Below, piece after piece: positions 4,909 to 32,977 of a DNA stretch of 39,703 nucleotides (positions within the stretch are counted from its first letter, which is position 1; the number at the start of each line of letters is the position of its first letter). The position numbers were made by a program, and so were the translations under genes. Source of the stretch: Candidatus Tayloriibacteriota bacterium. GTDB taxonomy: Bacteria; Patescibacteriota; Minisyncoccia; Phycocordibacterales; UBA10002. Below the pieces are notes generated by a model. That model did no database searches. It saw nothing but the letters and a program-made list of their open reading frames with translations, and was not told the DNA's origin. The stretch is taken from NCBI GenBank assembly GCA_009694955.1, contig SIBZ01000004.1:1-39703 (forward strand), given 5' to 3'.

Positions 4909-5652
4909 ATGAACATACTGCGAACACGATTTAAAAAAGACATTGTGTGCGAATTTATTCCTCCCAATCGACCTTCAAACAAGGTGATTATTTTCTGTAA
5001 AGGAATGCCTGGGCTTCCTCGGTTCCCCCAGGTGTTGGAATTCTGGGCGAAAAAAGGCTACTGGGTATTTTTCCCCCGTTATCGTGGCACATGGGAAAGC
5101 GACGGCGAGTTTCTGAAGGAATCTCCCGAAAAGGACATTCTTGATGTCATCGACGAACTCCCAAAAGGATTTACCGACCTCTGGTCCGGTCGGTCCTATA
5201 AGCTATCAGCTAAAAGCTATAAGCTATTCATATTCGGCGGCAGTTTCGGCGGGCCGGCAGCAATACTCTGTTCCCGAGATCCACGTGTGACGAAAGCGGT
5301 CGCCTTCGCGCCAGTTATAGATTGGGAAGCGCCATCCGAGGAAGAACCGATGGATAAACTTGGTGCATTTATTCCGCAAGGGTTTGGACAGAGCTACCGG
5401 TTCTCACAGAAAAATTGGGACCGACTCAGCCACAACGAGTTTTACAGTCCGCTCAAAGAGTCCGATACGATTGATGGCAAAAAACTTCTCATCTTCCACG
5501 CTAAGGATGACGAATCGTGCCACTATCCCTCGACCAAAACATTCGCCGAAAAAACCGGCGCGAAACTCATCACGCTTCGCACCGGTGGCCACTTTGGCAT
5601 CTCAAAATCCATCGAACCGAGATTCTATAAAGAAATCAAGAAATTCCTCTAG
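4909..5652 (+). CDS. Alpha/beta hydrolase (prolyl-oligopeptidase-like)
   Basis: YRGTWES, nucleophile elbow GGSFGG, FHAKDD and GGH. Confidence 0.88.
   Translation: MNILRTRFKKDIVCEFIPPNRPSNKVIIFCKGMPGLPRFPQVLEFWAKKGYWVFFPRYRGTWESDGEFLKESPEKDILDVIDELPKGFTDLWSGRSYKLSAKSYKLFIFGGSFGGPAAILCSRDPRVTKAVAFAPVIDWEAPSEEEPMDKLGAFIPQGFGQSYRFSQKNWDRLSHNEFYSPLKESDTIDGKKLLIFHAKDDESCHYPSTKTFAEKTGAKLITLRTGGHFGISKSIEPRFYKEIKKFL
5196..5226. repeat. In-frame heptamer array (AGCTnnn family) inside the hydrolase
   Basis: ctataag ctatcag ctaaaag ctataag cta, read as SYKLSAKSYKL. Confidence 0.8.
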
Positions 5653-5653
5653 T

Positions 5654-5702
5654 AGTAATTTTAGCAAAGTAACCACGGCCGTGGTTACTTTGCTAAATTA
5701 CT
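5654..5702. repeat. Perfect 38-bp palindrome with no loop (REP-like or bidirectional terminator)
   Basis: tttagcaaagtaaccacgg|ccgtggttactttgctaaa at 5660-5697; contains the truB TAG. Confidence 0.85.
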
Positions 5703-6409
5703 TCTGCATCTTCGATTTTGAATTCTCCTATTCGAGTACGGCGAAGCCCCGCGAGCGTGGCGGGAACTCCAAGACGCCTTCCGAACTCTTCGGCGAGGGA
5801 GCGGATGTAGGTCCCGCTTGTGACGTCGAAGCGGACAGACACCACCACCCCGCCTCCGGCACCCCTCCTCAACTGAGGAGGGGGTGAAGAGACACCGAGA
5901 AACTCCACCGCGGTTATCTCCATCACCTTACTTGGAGTATCTACCACTTCACCGCGCCGTGCTTTTTTATACAGTGCTTCCCCTCCCCGTTTGATAGCGG
6001 AATACGCCGGAACCGGAAGCTCAAGCTTTCCTATCATTGTCTGCAGTATCTTTTCTATTTCTTCGTTTGAAAATTTCTTATCTTGAAAATTAATTGAAAA
6101 TTGGGAATTGGAAATTGGTACTTCTTGGCCAGTGATATCTCCCGTATCCGTTTTTACTCCGAGTAGTATTTCCGCCTCATATGTTTTATCGAGCTTCAAA
6201 AACTCGTGAAGTTTTTTGGTTCCGTCACCAACTCCGATAATCATAAGCCCCGTCGCCATCGGGTCCAGCGTCCCCGCATGCCCCATCTTGCGTATATTCA
6301 GCTTCTTCCTCAGTATGCGAATACAGTCAAAGGAAGTAATTCCCTTCGGCTTATCAATGAGTAGAATATGTTCGGGAAGCACAGTAGGAGTATGGTACAC
6401 TTTTAACAT
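5693..6409 (-). CDS. truB: tRNA pseudouridine(55) synthase
   Basis: DKPKGITS, GHAGTLDPMATG, PAYSAIK, GTYIRSLA and LRRTRIG; ATG at 6409. Confidence 0.96.
   Translation of the reverse strand: MLKVYHTPTVLPEHILLIDKPKGITSFDCIRILRKKLNIRKMGHAGTLDPMATGLMIIGVGDGTKKLHEFLKLDKTYEAEILLGVKTDTGDITGQEVPISNSQFSINFQDKKFSNEEIEKILQTMIGKLELPVPAYSAIKRGGEALYKKARRGEVVDTPSKVMEITAVEFLGVSSPPPQLRRGAGGGVVVSVRFDVTSGTYIRSLAEEFGRRLGVPATLAGLRRTRIGEFKIEDAEVI
5844..5884. repeat. In-frame GC-rich double-hairpin element in truB
   Basis: accaccccgcctccggcacccctcctcaactgaggaggggg, read as PPPQLRRGAGGGVV. Confidence 0.75.
6067..6120. repeat. In-frame heptamer array (TTGrrAA family) in truB
   Basis: ttgaaaa...ttgaaaa ttaa ttgaaaa ttgggaa ttggaaa ttggta, read as PISNSQFSINFQDKKFSN. 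Confidence 0.75.
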
Positions 6410-6415
6410 ATCATT

Positions 6416-6492
6416 AATCACCAATAACCAATATCCAATCACCAAGGAAGAAATGATTCTTTTTGGGTATTGATAATTGGTGCTTGGTTATT
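6416..6492. repeat. Inverted heptamer cassette, CCAAT/TTGG family, copy 2
   Basis: aatcacc aataacc aatatcc aatcacc aa - spacer ggaagaaatgattctttt - ttgggta ttgataa ttggtgc ttggtta tt. Confidence 0.88.
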
Positions 6493-6497
6493 TTACT

Positions 6498-6752
6498 ATG
6501 TCCCACATAGACCGCCTCGAATTTAAAAAAGCGTTGTACAAACTCCGCGAAAGCGGTTCGTTTTCCAATCATGAAATAGACGAGATAGAGAACGTCTTTT
6601 ACGGTAGCTTACACGAAAGCAATATGTCGGCAGGTATCAGCTCCTCTGAACTCGAAAAAGGCATCGAGTACCTCACACGACATCCCGAAAATCACCATCT
6701 TTCTCACGATGAAATCAAAAAATTGGAGGAGGTGCTGAAGCACTATCTCTAA
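6498..6752 (+). CDS. Small hypothetical helical protein (84 aa)
   Basis: ATG at 6498; internal repeat FSNHEIDEIE / LSHDEIKKLE; protein-like composition. Confidence 0.7.
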   Translation: MSHIDRLEFKKALYKLRESGSFSNHEIDEIENVFYGSLHESNMSAGISSSELEKGIEYLTRHPENHHLSHDEIKKLEEVLKHYL

Positions 6753-6755
6753 GAA

Positions 6756-6816
6756 AATAACCGAAAAATCACTGATTCTCTTTTGGTTGGTGGTTGGTGA
6801 TGGGTGTTTGATTATT
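6756..6816. repeat. CCAAT/TTGG family cassette, copy 3 (degenerate), forming a protein C-terminus
   Basis: aataacc...tgattctctttt ggttggtgg ttggtga tgggtgt ttgatta tt; read on the minus strand as NNQTPITNHQPKENQ*. Confidence 0.7.
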
Positions 6817-26000: not shown

Positions 26001-26722
26001 AGCTCTCCTTCAAGCGTCTTCTGGAGCACGTTCAAATCGAGCACCACGAGGAGGTCGTAAATCGCCTCCGCACCGACACCCGCTTCAAAGAGCGTGCCGT
26101 ATTTGAGCGAGAACGAATGAAATTGCACTTCATCAAGAACCGCCCCTTCGACAACGCCCTCTATTTCGCGCTTGGCCATAAGGTAGCGCTCTTTCAAAGC
26201 ATCGCGGTCTTTCTCCGTCGTAAGAGCCTTTACTTTGGTGCGGTATTCGTTCTCGAGGTCGCGCAGGAGTCTCGAGCGCTCTTCGGGCGCGACTTTCGTG
26301 ATGAGATATCCCGCGAAATAAATGACTTTTTCGAGCTCGGCCGAGGACATACCGAGAAGGAGTCCGAGGCGGGAGGGCATACTCCTGAGGAACCAGATAT
26401 GGGAAACCGGCGACGAGAGTTCGATATGTCCCATTCGCTCACGGCGGACAATCGAGCGCGTCAGTTCTACGCCACATTTCTCACAGACAATACCTTTATA
26501 GCGGACACCGCGGTATTTCCCGCAATAACATTCATAGTCGCGGTCGGGACCGAAGATGCGCTCGTCGAAGAGGCCGTTCTTTTCACTGCGCTGTGTTCGG
26601 TAGTTGATGGTTTCCGGCTTGGTGACTTCACCGAACGACCACTCCTTGATGTCGTCGGGCGACGCAAGTTTGAGGAAGACCGAGTCGAAGTCGTTGATGT
26701 TTGAGATGGTTTTGCTTTTCAT
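23036..26722 (-). CDS. rpoC: RNA polymerase beta' subunit
   Basis: NADFDGD catalytic motif, zinc-binding cysteines and GEPGTQLTMRTFH. Confidence 0.99.
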   Translation of the reverse strand: MKSKTISNINDFDSVFLKLASPDDIKEWSFGEVTKPETINYRTQRSEKNGLFDERIFGPDRDYECYCGKYRGVRYKGIVCEKCGVELTRSIVRRERMGHIELSSPVSHIWFLRSMPSRLGLLLGMSSAELEKVIYFAGYLITKVAPEERSRLLRDLENEYRTKVKALTTEKDRDALKERYLMAKREIEGVVEGAVLDEVQFHSFSLKYGTLFEAGVGAEAIYDLLVVLDLNVLQKTLEGELEKASSVERDRLNKRLSLIRSMISANIRPEWMFLTRVPVIPPALRPMVPLDGGRYATSDVNDLYRRVINRNNRLRKLKEINAPDVILRNEKRILQEAVDSLIDNSIRHGAGAAGALTASQRRPLKSLSDNLKGKRGLFRQNLLGKRVDYSGRSVIVVGPELKLHQCGLPKHMALELFRPFVISKLLQRELAFNIRGAGRLIEEGVPEVWAILEEVIKNKYVLLNRAPTLHRLGIQAFQPVLIEGNAIQVHPLVCTAFNADFDGDQMAVHVPLSEEAQLEAREIMAAHKNILKPGSGDPIVSGKMLDIVLGCWWMTKVLPGAKGEGKMFARPNSAITAWDFDVVDFRAKIKVLATEQEKYKAYEGKVFETTVGRLLFNSVLPNDYAFINKEMERKSMSSLVDDLINRYGISEIPSIMDRIKAFGFKYATYSGITWGIDDVKVPEGKADVIEKAKEKSEVAYQEWRDGLLSEEERLRKNIEIWHAAKAQVEKLIPASLDKNGSVFDMVYSGARGSFSQITQMAGMKGLIQNTAGETIEFPILSCMKEGLTPIEYFITTHGSRKGLTDTALNTAKAGYLTRKLFVVAQDVMVSEVDCGVKEGIKISRNSASGIDAILSKNIKGRFLSADIVTSEGTVLFKKGDLLTKLDALKVQEAGVEEVWVRSPLSCKSVSGICQKCYGLDLGKHEIVGLGEAVGTVAAQAIGEPGTQLTMRTFHTGGVSTLGGDITQGLPRVEELFEKRAPKNPAVVCRVDGIITEIKDLGKEKIITVLPDIADKSKTKKKSESEYVTSYNRIPLVKVGDAVKKGDLLTDGAADIDELFKYGGRERAQEYIISEVTKPYDLQGETVARKHIETIVRQMFFRRKVKDAGGTALSIGDVVDPLTLSRENEGAKERGEEEAKAESLVMGISEVSLSRRSFLSAASFQHTTRVLINSAVRGSKDSLQGLMENVIIGRLIPAGTGYKGGPKAAMIAKMQAELYPEPAFEEPAE

Positions 26723-26814: not shown

Positions 26815-29800
26815 ACGAGCTCGTTCCCGTCTTCGCTCATAGGTGGTCGACCGCTTTGCCGGCATCTCAATTCCCGTTTCTCCTTCTTTCTTCAGTTCAA
26901 CATCAAGCGCAAGTCCTCGCAGAGTGTTCAAAAGTACACTGAACGAAGCCGGCGCGTTCATCGCTCCGATACGCTCACCTTTCACGATGGCGTCGAATGC
27001 CGCAGAGCGCCCCAGAATATCGTCGGACTTAATCGTAAGCATTTCGCGGAGCGTATATGCCGCGCCATGACCGAGAAGCGCCCAGACTTCCATTTCACCG
27101 AAACGCTGACCTCCACCTTGCGCTTTCCCTCCGAGCGGTTGCTGGGTGATAAGCGAGTACGGACCGATGGAGCGCATATGAATTTTGTCTTCCACCATAT
27201 GGTGAAGCTTCATAATGTACATATACCCTACGGAGATATCCTGGTTGAAGCCATCGCCGGTCCGGCCGTCGTACAGTTTCATCTTGCCTGTCGGTGCGAT
27301 ACCTGCCTTCACGAGTTCTTCCTTGATTTCAACATCCGTCGCTCCCGCGAATGGGGGCACGATTGCCTGATAGCCGAGCGTGTTCGCGGCAAGGCCGAGG
27401 TGTAATTCCAAAATCTGTCCGAGGTTCATACGGGAAGGTACACCGAGCGGAGTGAGAATCATATCCACCGGACGGCCATCGGCCATATACGGCATATCTT
27501 CTTCGGGAAGCACCTTGGAGATGACACCCTTGTTTCCGTGGCGTCCGGCGAGTTTGTCGCCGACCGAAGCGGCGCGCAATTCCGCGACTTCGATATGAAT
27601 GCGCTTAATGATGCCCGATTCGAGCTTGTCGCCCTTCTCGCGCGAAAATACTTTCACGCCGATAATGCGCCCACGCTTTCCGTTTTCCATACGCTTCGAT
27701 GTGTCTTTGACGTCGCGCGCTTTCTCACCAAAGAGAGAACGCAGGAGTCTTTCTTCCGGCGTAAGCTGTGTTTCGCCTTTCGGAGTGATTTTACCGACAA
27801 GAATATCACCCGGGCGTACTTCCGCACCAATGCGCACAACACCGTCTTCATCGAGGTTCTTAAGTTTGCTTTCGCCGACGTTCGGGATGTCGTGAGTCGT
27901 GATTTCGGGACCGAGCTTGGTGTCGCGGACGTTTACCACAAACTCTTCAATGTGCACGCTTGTGAACCGGCTGTCCTTGACGAGGCGTTCCGAAATAATG
28001 ATGGCATCTTCGTAGTTGGAACCTGACCACGACATAAAGGCAATCAGGATGTTCTGGCCAAGCGCCATCTGTCCGCGGTCGCTCGATGAGGTATCGGAAA
28101 GCACGTCTCCGCGGGAGACGTTTTGGTTGAGCGACACAATCGGGCGCTGGTGGAATGAGGTAAAGCCGTTGGTCCGCGAGAAATTAACGAGGGGGTATTC
28201 CTTCTCCTTTCCTTTCGCGTTTTTGAGAACAATTCGGCGCGCGTCGACGTGACTGATGATGCCGTCTTCGTCAGCAATGATAAGACGTCCCGTATCGCGG
28301 GCCGCCATCTCCTCGATGCCGGTCGCGACAAGCGGAGCTTCGGGGATAAGGCACGGAGTCGCTTGTTTCTGCATGTTCGAACCCATAAGCGCGCGGTTCG
28401 CGTCGTCGTGGTTCAAGAACGGAATCATAGACGTAGCGACGGAAAAGGCCTGATTGGTCGCGACGTCGATGTAGTCAATTTCTTCCCGCTTCACAAGCTC
28501 CGGCTTTCCGTTCAGACGAACCTCGGCTTCAGCGGCAAGAATGGTTCCGTCAGCGCCGTACTTCGTGGCGGCATGGGCGATTTTAAAGTTTTCTTCCTCG
28601 AGCGCGTTGAGATACTGCACCTCCTTGGTGATTTTTCCGTCCTTTACTTTCGCGTAAGGCGTTTCAATCATTCCGAAACTGTTGAGACGGGCGTAGGTTG
28701 AGAGGCGGAGGATGAGTCCGATGTTCGGACCTTCGGGCGTATGAATGGGACAAAGTCGTCCGTAGTGGGACGGATGCACGTCGCGGACTTCGAAGCCTGC
28801 GCGTTCACGCGTCAGTCCTCCGGGACCGAGCGCCGAAAGCGTGCGTAAATGTTCGAGCTCGGAGAGAATGTTCTCCTGTTGCATAAACTGCGAGAGTTGG
28901 TTCGTGGTGAAGAATTCCTTGATGCGCGCTTGGAGAGGTTTTGGCGAAATGAAGTTGACAGGGAGCGTCACGTCGGACTCGACGGTCGACATACGGTCTT
29001 GCACGTTGCGCTTGATTTGCGCCATACCGACACGGATTTTCTGCTGGAAAAGTTCGCCGACAAAGCGCACTCTGCGTGAACCGAGGTGGTCGATGTCGTC
29101 CTCCATCGCGTCGGCGGTGTTGTCGAGCGTGATGACATTGGTGACAATCGTGACAAGGTCGTTGAGCGAGATGACCCGGCGGTCCATTTCTTTCTCATCC
29201 ATCGATTTGCCGAACCGCTTATTAAAGCGGAACCGCCCCACTTTCGAAAGGTCGTACCGTTCCGTCTCGAAGATGGAGTTGATGAACTCTTTCGCGTTCT
29301 CGACGCTTCCGATTTCCCCGTCGCGCAGGCGCTTGTGGATTTCCATATAGGCCTCGTCGGTTGTCTTCGCGTGGTCTTTGGCGAAAGACGCCTTAAGATG
29401 GGGTTCGGCGGCGGGAGTCGTGGCAAAAAGGCTGAAAATCTGCTTTTCATCCTTGGCTCCGAGAATGCGCAGGAGTGAGGTAACGGCAAACTTGCGCTTG
29501 CGGTCGATGCGGACATAGAGTGCACCATCCACATCGGTTTCAATTTCAATCCACGCGCCGCGTGCGGGAATAATCTTTGCACCGAAGTATTTCCTGCCCT
29601 TGATTTCCTCTGCCGTGAAAAAGACACCGAATGAACGGGCGAGCTGAGGCACAATAACACGCTCAATACCGGAAATGATGAACGTACCGTGCTGTGTCTG
29701 AAGCGGAAAATCCGCCATAAAAATCTCCTGCTCTTTCACTGAACCGACAATTTTATTCTTAAGACGCACCGTGACTTTGAGCGGAGCTTCATAGGAGAGC

Positions 29801-32173: not shown

Positions 32174-32860
32174 TTATTTTCTGCGCTTCAGTTTCCACTC
32201 GTTGATTTTTGCCTGATGACCGGAGAGAAGGATTTTAGGGACGCGGAATTTCTTGCCTTTGTAGGAAAAGATTTCAGGGCGGGTGTAGACATCGGGGCTG
32301 GCAACACGACTTTCCTCGCGCGAGTTGAAATCGCCAAGCACGCCTTCCACTTGGCGCGCGATTACGTCAATCATCAGCATTGCGGGGAGTTCCCCGCCGG
32401 TGAGTACGAACGGACCCACGGATACCTCCTCAACCTTGAATGCCTTCTTGACTCGTGCATCTATTCCCTCATACCGCCCGCAGATAATGATGATGTCTTT
32501 CTGTTTCGCGTACTTCACTCCACTTTCGTTGGTGAACTGCTTCCCGCTCGGGCTTAGCCAGACAAGAGGAGCTTTTAGCTTATAGCTTATAGCTTTTAGC
32601 TTTTTCGCCATTCTCACATTTTTAAGAATGTCAGAATATGCTTTTTCGATGGCGCGGATAACTGGTTCGGCTTGGATAACCATGCCGGGACCGCCGCCGT
32701 ACGGAGCGCGGTCAATTCGTTTCCATTTATTTTCCGCAAAATCGCGCGGGTTGTAGAACTTCACCTGTATCTTTTTGTCCTCAATGGCGCGCTTCAAAAT
32801 CGACTCCCCGAGATAGGAGTCAAATGCGTGCGGGAATAAGGTTATGATATGGAAATTCAT
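32174..32860 (-). CDS. trmD: tRNA (guanine-N1)-methyltransferase
   Basis: PYGGGPGMV, LSPSG, CGRYEGIDAR, VLTGGELPA and LLSGH; ATG at 32860. Confidence 0.97.
   Translation of the reverse strand: MNFHIITLFPHAFDSYLGESILKRAIEDKKIQVKFYNPRDFAENKWKRIDRAPYGGGPGMVIQAEPVIRAIEKAYSDILKNVRMAKKLKAISYKLKAPLVWLSPSGKQFTNESGVKYAKQKDIIIICGRYEGIDARVKKAFKVEEVSVGPFVLTGGELPAMLMIDVIARQVEGVLGDFNSREESRVASPDVYTRPEIFSYKGKKFRVPKILLSGHQAKINEWKLKRRK
32570..32637. repeat. Composite in-frame insert in trmD: heptamer array plus palindrome
   Basis: agctttt agcttat agcttat agctttt agctttt (32570-32604) and attctcacatttttaagaatgtcagaat (32610-32637), read as SDILKNVRMAKKLKAISYKLKA. Confidence 0.8.
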
Positions 32861-32899
32861 GTATAGCAAAATACAACAAAATTGTAATAATGGCAATAC

Positions 32900-32931
32900 A
32901 ACACAAAACCGCCTTTCGGCGGTTTTGTGTT
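32900..32931 (-). terminator. Terminator after khpA
   Basis: aacacaaaaccgcc-tttc-ggcggttttgtgtt. Confidence 0.85.
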
Positions 32932-32942
32932 AGTCTTTTCTG

Positions 32943-32977
32943 AAAGCTAAAAGCTAAAAGCTAGAACCTAAAAGCTA
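32943..32977. repeat. Heptamer array, AGCTnnn family
   Basis: aaagcta aaagcta aaagcta gaaccta aaagcta; last unit carries the khpA TAG. Confidence 0.85.

Follow-up and report, generated by a model that had tools for sequence, protein, structure and literature searches.

What does repeat DNA do inside the coding sequence of a conserved enzyme? The question is raised by truB, the tRNA pseudouridine-55 synthase gene of Candidatus Tayloriibacteriota bacterium, on contig SIBZ01000004.1 of assembly GCA_009694955.1. The whole stretch of DNA that was analysed, hereafter the window, is 39,703 nucleotides (nt) long and is contig C31 of a genome (G000) of 868,699 bp in 52 contigs with 49.8% GC. A preliminary description of the window had reported two unrelated in-frame repeat inserts in truB and two further elements flanking the gene, and all four were found where it had placed them. 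It had also proposed that the inserts are a route of protein elaboration. It seems likely to us that they are instead tolerated, fast-turnover repeat DNA in two permissive loops of the enzyme, and not an adaptive elaboration of it. The organism is an ultra-small bacterium from fresh water, and protein matches assign it to Patescibacteria. The genomes of Patescibacteria are tiny and streamlined, and here core enzymes of such a genome spend coding sequence on repeat DNA. In this respect truB shows tolerance of selfish or structural DNA inside essential-type genes.

The truB gene and its two inserts

5693..6409, minus strand: truB, tRNA pseudouridine-55 synthase, 238 amino acids (aa); ATG at 6409, TAG at 5693-5695; from the list of open reading frames (ORFs)
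6092..6118, minus strand: site 1 insert, in-frame heptamer array; Tandem Repeats Finder (TRF) period 7, 3.9 copies, 85% matches
~5840..5886, plus strand (antisense to truB): site 2 insert, GC-rich element; 29 loci in the genome, 12-residue gap against the solved TruB 1r3e

The product of truB matches TruB_N (Pfam PF01509) with an E-value of 2e-38 and 132.5 bits against a cut-off of 27.3, the start codon of the database protein P0001 is the truB start in the window, and the genome holds a single truB match. The protein keeps every one of the 56 columns that are invariant in an alignment of 38 TruB sequences, including D49 (the catalytic Asp of GTLDP) and Y201 and R203 (of GTYIRS), in agreement with the earlier statement that the catalytic motifs are intact. 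An AlphaFold2 (AF2) model from 38 orthologues has a mean predicted local distance difference test score (pLDDT) of 87.7 and a predicted template modelling score (pTM) of 0.86. Its best Foldseek match is the T. maritima TruB 1r3e_A (E 1.8e-21, query-normalised template modelling score 0.78), and 1k8w_A (E 2.5e-20) is a further solved TruB that it matches. The PUA domain is absent, as the phmmer alignment to the 309-residue 1r3e chain stops at residue 204, and TruB_C_2 reaches 24.9 bits, under its cut-off of 29.3. Patescibacteria orthologues of 211-217 aa share this short form, so that the lack of the PUA domain is a lineage trait and not damage. To judge from its sequence, truB is an intact, single-copy tRNA pseudouridine-55 synthase gene that looks able to work and has the TruB fold.

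Against 1r3e, phmmer places exactly two gaps in the alignment, of 9 and 12 aa. The first spans 'isnsqfsin' and matches the position of the site 1 array, which is 27 nt long, AT-rich and, on the coding strand, made of about four CCAATTN units coding for PISNSQFSI directly after DTGDITG. Site 1 (residues 98-112) is modelled as coil, with a pLDDT of 68 for the block 101-110, and the array is predicted to have no RNA fold (-1.2 kcal/mol). The heptamer insert had originally been drawn at 6067-6120; its position is borne out by TRF and by the gap, but the range is wider than the clean array, from which a looser 7-nt phasing extends to about 6067.

The second gap spans 'spppqlrrgagg' and coincides with the site 2 element. 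Read on the plus strand, this element consists of a CACCACCACCCC block, a small GCCTCCGGC hairpin and a CCCCTCCTC/GAGGAGGGG hairpin with a 4-nt loop, and in truB it gives the peptide SPPPQLRRGAGGGVVV. The GC hairpin insert reported at 5844-5884 is thereby present and in frame; its 22-nt core at 5862-5883 forms the hairpin, and 0 matches are expected from 100 shuffles. The beta hairpin of strands E160-174 and E188-196 has site 2 (residues 175-187) at its tip, and the block 181-190 has a pLDDT of 72. The two inserts are the lowest-confidence internal parts of the AF2 model. The mapping on a structure model that had been suggested thus puts them in loops, but the net gain per site is only 8-12 aa, which is below the ranges claimed.

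Dispersed repeat classes

Both inserts have many counterparts elsewhere in the genome. TRF gave 173 rows of period 7, compared with 13 of period 6 and 45 of period 8, and three shuffles in 100-nt blocks gave 12, 13 and 16 rows of period 7; heptamer arrays are over-represented relative to both other periods and shuffles. Their units have a mean of 30% GC, the commonest array size is about four units, and many unit types coexist, the commonest being the AAAATTG class (13 arrays), to which the site 1 array belongs. On a crude gene map of longest stop-to-stop ORFs, used for all repeat placements, 109 arrays fall between genes, 34 well inside ORFs and 30 at ORF margins. Among arrays of at least 3 copies, 27 of 129 have an inverted partner within 700 nt and 5 a direct one, with gaps mostly of 17-54 nt. 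The other ORFs that host arrays of at least 3.5 copies all carry Pfam families (12/12), and they include Tgt, RNase H, KsgA, LeuRS, ribosomal protein S5 and alanine racemase as well as DnaE, SecA, prepilin peptidase, IleRS, TrmD and the hydrolase next to truB.

The GC element has a similar distribution, with 14 of its 29 loci intergenic, 11 within ORFs and 4 at ORF margins. The best other copies, on C45, C36, C14, C41 and C7, match the truB copy with 93-96% identity across 41-47 nt. The heptamer and GC elements considered here are 27-51 nt long. Pfam families were found for 9 of the 10 other host ORFs: Obg, YebC, shikimate dehydrogenase (AroE), EPSP synthase, IMPDH, GMP synthase (GuaA), peptidyl-tRNA hydrolase (Pth), an HhH-GPD glycosylase and an Ig-like surface protein. 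On C6, an intergenic copy identical to the glycosylase copy lies 4.5 kb from it. Translation of the element occurs in either orientation, and depending on the gene the hairpin yields peptides of the PPQLRRG or the SSTEEG type; because it is read both ways with different peptides, the conserved unit is the DNA and not the peptide. In 30 copies the flanks are purine-rich runs on both sides, and the hairpins are internal, not terminal. The inserts of truB are therefore members of dispersed repeat classes that reside in frame in many genes.

Could there be nothing mobile or repeated here, only ordinary loops of low complexity that evolve fast, or an artefact of assembly at repeats? Loops of this kind do vary in length in many protein families, metagenome contigs can be misjoined at repeats, and contigs from the sequencing runs break at the palindrome over the truB stop codon. 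Their depth jumps at this palindrome and at the left arm of the cassette upstream of truB, not at the in-gene site 1 array, and also at the GC element (run X1, contig depth 650 vs 38 at 5838-5905). However, in two other studies the assembled contigs run through both inserts without a single difference (X3, covering 5668-6001 and 5991-6600, and X5, covering 5848-6155), and P0002, a separate record, has the same site 2 peptide. The frame of truB is open throughout, both inserts included, near-identical copies of the site 2 element exist at 28 other loci, and period-7 arrays are more than 10-fold above shuffles. With this evidence we give the explanation by drift or artefact almost no credence.

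Two other ideas on the truB copy of the GC element were considered and dropped. The AGACACC repeat around it was tried as a target duplication, but its copies are 53 nt apart (which would break the frame), it overlaps the element consensus, and other GC copies have no consistent duplication. Translational bypass or excision of the element is unsupported and unparsimonious.

Of the 18 copies of the GC element outside genes, 7 were observed to precede, in sense orientation and by 12-38 nt, the ATG of an ORF of 100-765 aa (G000 C27:5457-5490, C32:1076-1113, C32:4851-4896, C32:6792-6837, C4:1159-1196, C42:12063-12101 and C6:42575-42625). In each of these the GAGGAGG stem arm is followed by a purine-rich tail of AGGAAGA type, and the element may be located in ribosome-binding regions or provide them.

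Same two sites, different occupants

The DNA of truB was compared in 10 same-genus genomes and 6 close metagenome contigs. Site 1 has at least five unit types among the relatives, our own included, and site 2 at least eight unrelated hairpin-forming families, some of which were assigned in P-series proteins from peptides alone. Family P is the family of the palindrome over the truB stop codon.

Site 1, unit CCAATTN: own, L002, L004, L007
Site 1, unit GAAKTAW: L006, L011, L018
Site 1, unit GATTCRR: L008
Site 1, unit AGTTGNN: L010
Site 1, GAAATAN-like unit: L017, L019
Site 2, own GC element alone: this genome, P0002
Site 2, TCTCCCTTTG...AAAGGGAG hairpin with 'PLKKGG' peptide, often joined to the GC element: L004, L005, L007
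Site 2, CCTCCG.../...GGAGG module with 'KSSA...TSF.KGGISLP' peptide: L007, L019
Site 2, GTCATTCCC...GGGAATGAC double hairpin: L003, L006, L009
Site 2, family P palindromes in frame: L008, L017, L051, G001:C4:138-171 (contig end)
Site 2, three further palindromes: L002, L010, L018

The site 2 segment is 18-80 residues long across 42 orthologues and mostly 22 in distant Patescibacteria orthologues. It had been pointed out that orthologues with equally long, non-repetitive segments would speak against repeat insertion; in the alignment, the loops outside the genus are short and non-repetitive. Within the genus, P0001, P0002 and P0003 (= L007) are about 94% identical over conserved columns, yet they differ at site 1, site 2 or both. 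P0001 and P0002 have site 2 in common and different arrays at site 1, and P0003 has the site 1 type of P0001 and an 80-residue composite at site 2. The inserts thus occupy two loops of an otherwise conserved fold, and the occupants change faster than the backbone. Copy numbers of the repeats are lineage-specific as well: the GC hairpin is found in 17 of 21 genus genomes at 0-16 copies each; this genome has 16, G012 has 14 and G018 has 11, and none of the others has more than 4. Taken together, truB and its orthologues form a compact natural experiment, in which the occupants of two permissive loops are swapped on near-identical backbones.

Some of the changes can be followed in the DNA. Relative to L004, with which it shares near-identical flanks, L007 has two extra stretches, one of about 48 nt within the apical loop of the hairpin already there and one of about 63 nt beyond it. 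Its site 2, read from this alignment, is a nested insertion. In the L005 composite it is the right half that aligns with our own GC element, beside the same downstream codons, and the element is accordingly orthologous to that half. P0010 has a hairpin-type peptide within its site 1 array. Several contigs of relatives end inside truB at site 1 or 2 (L011/L015 of G001, L008/L014 of G020, L012 of G002, and L024), as is expected of multi-copy repeats.

A third insert was seen in P0017 and P0030 after the KKL motif near residue 40 (alignment columns 58-74; e.g. HANGAPTPAGFGNTKAPTRM), which suggests a third permissive loop there.

These comparisons bear most directly on the proposal that the inserts are adaptive, with their peptides adding a surface to TruB that could, for instance, bind a partner protein or make an extra RNA contact in compensation for the absent PUA domain. 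The inserts are in frame in an intact, single-copy gene, the PUA domain is absent, the VVV of the site 2 element is modelled as a beta-strand extension, and site 1 peptides such as ELPISN.QFPNN recur in several relatives. The last is due to the recurrence of the DNA unit. Against an adaptive role stand the unrelated peptides that near-identical backbones have at both sites, the other peptides that the GC element yields in other genes, depending on gene and orientation, and the low model confidence at both inserts. Protein elaboration, which had been put forward for this gene, is not supported, given such turnover between backbones 94% identical, and we judge it very improbable.

Selection could also act on the nucleic acid. 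In that case the site 2 hairpin, and possibly the site 1 array, would be selected in cis for a use such as pausing, processing, attenuation or nuclease protection, and a hairpin would be maintained in each lineage although its sequence could be exchanged. A perfect stem of 8-19 bp is present at site 2 in all 14 close relatives with DNA (own included), from at least eight families, whereas it occurs in 5% of random 96-nt segments of the genome (n=2000). The short 22-residue segment is found in the tree ingroup only in P0041 and in P0096, which is probably misplaced, and at the palindrome near the truB 3' end the changes between G000 and G011 are mirrored, so that the palindrome stays perfect. 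On the other hand, the element families are also found in many unrelated genes and spacers, and no truB-specific role is needed; TruB genes of more distant Patescibacteria lack any insert. The fold of the GC hairpin is ordinary for its composition (z -1.76, equalled in 14/200 shuffles), the site 1 array has none, and a hairpin in all relatives would likewise be expected if most inserts in these genomes were hairpin elements and permissive loops were few. We therefore regard selection in cis as improbable, though less so than a new protein surface.

A probable load of tolerated repeats

It remains probable that truB carries tolerated repeat DNA with a fast turnover. The repeats would arrive or be rewritten at the DNA level, through insertion, nested insertion into resident hairpins, gene conversion and recombination between strains, and selection would retain only the events that leave the frame open in loops that tolerate extra floppy length. 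As few loops of a 220-aa enzyme qualify, the same two sites would be re-occupied repeatedly in related species. The insert peptides would then be by-products, and the two flanking elements would be part of the same repeat load.

Several points weigh against this explanation. The neutrality of the inserts, the filter by selection and the mode of element movement are what we infer, as is the insertion event in this lineage, and the insert-bearing truB is known here from DNA alone. For neither insert of this genome was an empty-site allele with identical flanks found; a joint that omits 5840-5897 in a relative in run X6 was not counted as an empty site. No clear, consistent target-site duplication or terminal inverted repeat was found for the GC element in the flanks of 30 copies. 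At site 2 the protein exceeds the 22-residue baseline of distant orthologues by only about 8 aa, less than the approximately 15 aa of the element, so that some of the original loop must be gone or have been replaced. With 2 of 39 inner branches starred, the truB tree is too poorly resolved for a count of independent gains, and sequences of kin are not independent samples. In addition, the hairpin at site 2 in every close relative would fit selection for a hairpin there too.

A more specific version of the mechanism is that site 2 is a structure-directed landing pad, where hairpin elements preferentially insert into or replace resident hairpins. Behind it are a single nested insertion that falls precisely within a hairpin loop and the presence, in one genus, of at least eight families at a single codon-scale site; we offer it tentatively, as something that may well not hold. 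If it were true, Patescibacteria would have a hitherto undescribed machinery for hairpin-targeting mobilisation or conversion, with the Y1-transposase-like genes and the palindrome-bracketed mini-PaaX/Cas2-like proteins described below as candidate actors, and the same machinery would keep writing new peptide loops into housekeeping enzymes.

The palindrome at the stop codon and mini-PaaX-like genes

5660..5697, no strand: family P palindrome, 38 nt, perfect; arms 5660-5678 and 5679-5697 of 19 nt, 100%, no loop

The palindrome that had been noticed over the truB stop has fully complementary 19-nt arms with the TAG at 5693-5695 inside, and it starts 8 nt past the stop of the convergent hydrolase gene. 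Its layout is TTTAGCA, 8 nt, ACGGCCGT, 8 nt, TGCTAAA, and its RNA fold is stable on both strands (-29.6 and -29.1 kcal/mol, z about -8.1). From a blastn-short search it was taken to be single-copy, a view abandoned when a direct palindrome scan gave a family of 8 members in the genome; blastn-short missed the second copies because the inner arms are copy-specific. The outer TTTAGCA and the central ACGGCCGT are conserved, and the inner 7-8 nt differ by copy but are always mirrored on the opposite arm. Family P occurs in 17 of 21 genus genomes at 0-13 copies each, and a reversed-pattern control gave 0 hits. Several genomes have a dominant identical variant (7 of 9 copies in G005, 6 of 10 in G011), and in G011 a related variant lies 26 nt beyond the truB stop, differing by changes mirrored on both arms.

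On C46 of our genome (L083), family P palindromes at 26520-26557 and 27204-27241 enclose a gene of 205 aa, the product of which has the central Cas2-like domain of PaaX (PaaX_M, E 2.9e-18). The same palindrome-bracketed layout is present in G002, G003 (twice), G010, G011 and G012. At least 16 family P loci among the 75 listed lie within about 400 nt of one of 82 PaaX_M matches, where chance would give <1; this is a hand tally over the 75 loci, with 32 further loci outside it. Orphan palindromes share the variant of the gene-flanking pair in G002, G003, G011 and G012. On these similarities we regard the stop palindrome as an orphan copy from a system of palindrome and mini-PaaX-like gene.

The stop palindrome might in addition serve as a hairpin where the two convergent genes meet. 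A terminator scan called it on the plus strand only, with a weak T tail (TTACTTCTGC); terminator-like sites were not in excess of shuffles (2 against a mean of 1.4), and the typical ones of this genome have A/T-tract flanks and look different. In Rfam the palindrome gave only sub-threshold, microRNA-precursor-like hits of 20-23 bits against gathering scores of 56-200.

The genome has two ORFs of about 240 aa with Y1_Tnp (HUH transposase-like), at C14:11921-12643 and C27:6564-7277. At the stop of the first lies a 43-nt palindrome, a half-site of which recurs upstream of the ORF, and the second adjoins a multi-hairpin composite that resembles the in-frame 'PLKKGG ... KSSA' composites in truB of the relatives. 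A second PaaX_M match, at C6:49724-49945, was observed between two copies of a different palindrome, of 32 nt (49358-49389 and 50007-50038).

Comparison with known systems

Among known systems, G/C-rich intrastrand triplex-type motifs (BoxC/PIT/TMECO) resemble the GC element in its three matching blocks, in which CACCACCACCCC mirrors CCCCTCCTC and CCCCTCCTC pairs with GAGGAGGGG. They differ in that the first block of the GC element has A where a pyrimidine-motif triplex would need T. In Nostoc and Anabaena, small dispersed repeats nested in tandem heptamer repeats were reportedly described by Elhai et al. in 2008. The likeness to that system is that hairpin elements and heptamer arrays share sites and nest, here in P0010 and L007. 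Besides lineage and sequences, the difference is that the elements here lie in frame within housekeeping enzymes.

The parallel with Rickettsia palindromic elements (RPEs; Ogata et al. 2000, summarised in PMC10969869), drawn already in the preliminary description, holds as a description. RPEs are about 150 bp long and each encodes a conserved peptide, according to that summary. As in the passages of PMC10969869 on RPEs, there are non-autonomous repeats of several families in frame in unrelated housekeeping genes, and the host proteins are intact with the extra peptide where the fold tolerates it. In contrast to the RPE description given there, the truB units are 27-50 nt long and have no conserved peptide. 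In addition, at least four unrelated classes are present at truB, the GC element is read both ways, and the lineage is Patescibacteria.

Heptanucleotide repeats with inverted pairs are described for Xanthomonas (GGGAATC) and Nostoc (GGGGA(C/T)T), along with heptanucleotides of Calothrix, in the relevant part of Rehm et al. 2015 (PMC4692102). As there, period 7 is over-represented, and its arrays are mainly intergenic and often form convergent inverted pairs able to make stem-loops. Compared with the repeats in that part of PMC4692102, the units here are AT-rich and not G-rich quadruplex formers, and the arrays are short, with many different units side by side in one genome and about a fifth of the arrays in frame in genes. 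Family P resembles the repetitive extragenic palindromic (REP) sequences, REPINs and their RAYT genes (Bertels and Rainey 2011, PMC3116915) in occurring both as orphans and as gene-bracketing pairs. The partner here is of PaaX_M type with a Cas2-like domain and not a Y1 transposase, and the Y1_Tnp-like genes of this genome (on C27 and C14) have other flanking palindromes. The resemblance to REP/RAYT would thus be one of layout, and movement is not implied.

In open-access full text we found nothing linking heptamer repeats, palindromic elements or PaaX-like genes with Patescibacteria. What this locus contributes is four repeat classes on one gene, the serial re-occupation of two loops in one genus, nested insertion, and in-frame copies of the mini-PaaX palindrome. 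It makes testable how small repeats move or are rewritten without a recognisable transposase, how much loop insertion is tolerated by a conserved enzyme, and whether long palindromes tied to mini-PaaX-like genes behave like REPs. From a practical point of view, such repeats fragment assemblies within genes and add to the variation in protein length, and in these lineages they can lead annotation and alignment-based phylogeny astray.

The upstream cassette and other arrays

6416..6445, no strand: upstream cassette, left arm, heptamer array (CCAATNN type, + strand); TRF period 7, 4.3 copies
6463..6492, no strand: upstream cassette, right arm, inverted heptamer array; inverted-repeat search
6498..6752, plus strand: small ORF, 84 aa, no Pfam family, divergent neighbour of truB; ORF list
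4909..5652, plus strand: alpha/beta hydrolase (Peptidase_S9-like), convergent neighbour of truB; ORF list and Pfam

The cassette reported just upstream of truB proved to be an inverted pair of heptamer arrays at 6416-6492. It takes up most of the 88-nt spacer between the divergent starts at 6409 and 6498: the left arm stops 7 nt short of the truB start codon, and the right arm ends 5 nt before the ATG at 6498 of the 84-aa ORF. The arms are 83% complementary (6416-6438 and 6463-6485) and 24 nt apart, and the 96-nt region folds with -23.4 and -23.9 kcal/mol (z -2.65 and -3.2). Arrays similar to the left arm are present on C6, C52, C30, C20 and other contigs, and the right arm is 83% identical, as a direct repeat, to the in-gene array at 6101-6123. 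In a promoter scan, counts were not above shuffles, and the single promoter-like match (in the right arm) overlaps the ATG of the neighbour.

Pairing of in-gene arrays with an inverted partner in the 5' leader was considered as a general arrangement and rejected: only 2 of 22 in-ORF arrays had a partner matching at ≥17/21 within 700 nt, and the truB array reached a match of only 15/21. An exception was observed in trmD (32177-32929, minus strand), where an in-frame array of five AGCTTTT units has an inverted partner (32570-32604 and 32943-32977, 18/21 match, 337 nt apart). This partner lies directly upstream of the start codon, and the pair encloses the 5' third of the gene.

Further repeats were noted around truB and elsewhere. 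The hydrolase gene has its own in-frame heptamer array at 5196-5227 (CTATAAG, 4.6 copies; peptide SYKLSAKSYKLF). Beyond the small divergent ORF there is a one-armed array at 6784-6810 (TGGTTGG, 3.9 copies), and a direct repeat of 32 nt, D1, links the cassette spacer region (6437-6468) with 6756-6787 at 72% identity. Finally, the 1242-aa IleRS ORF at C52:14805-18533 (L082), which has an in-frame heptamer array, also has a His_Phos_1 domain within the synthetase at residues 543-710 (E 4.8e-35).

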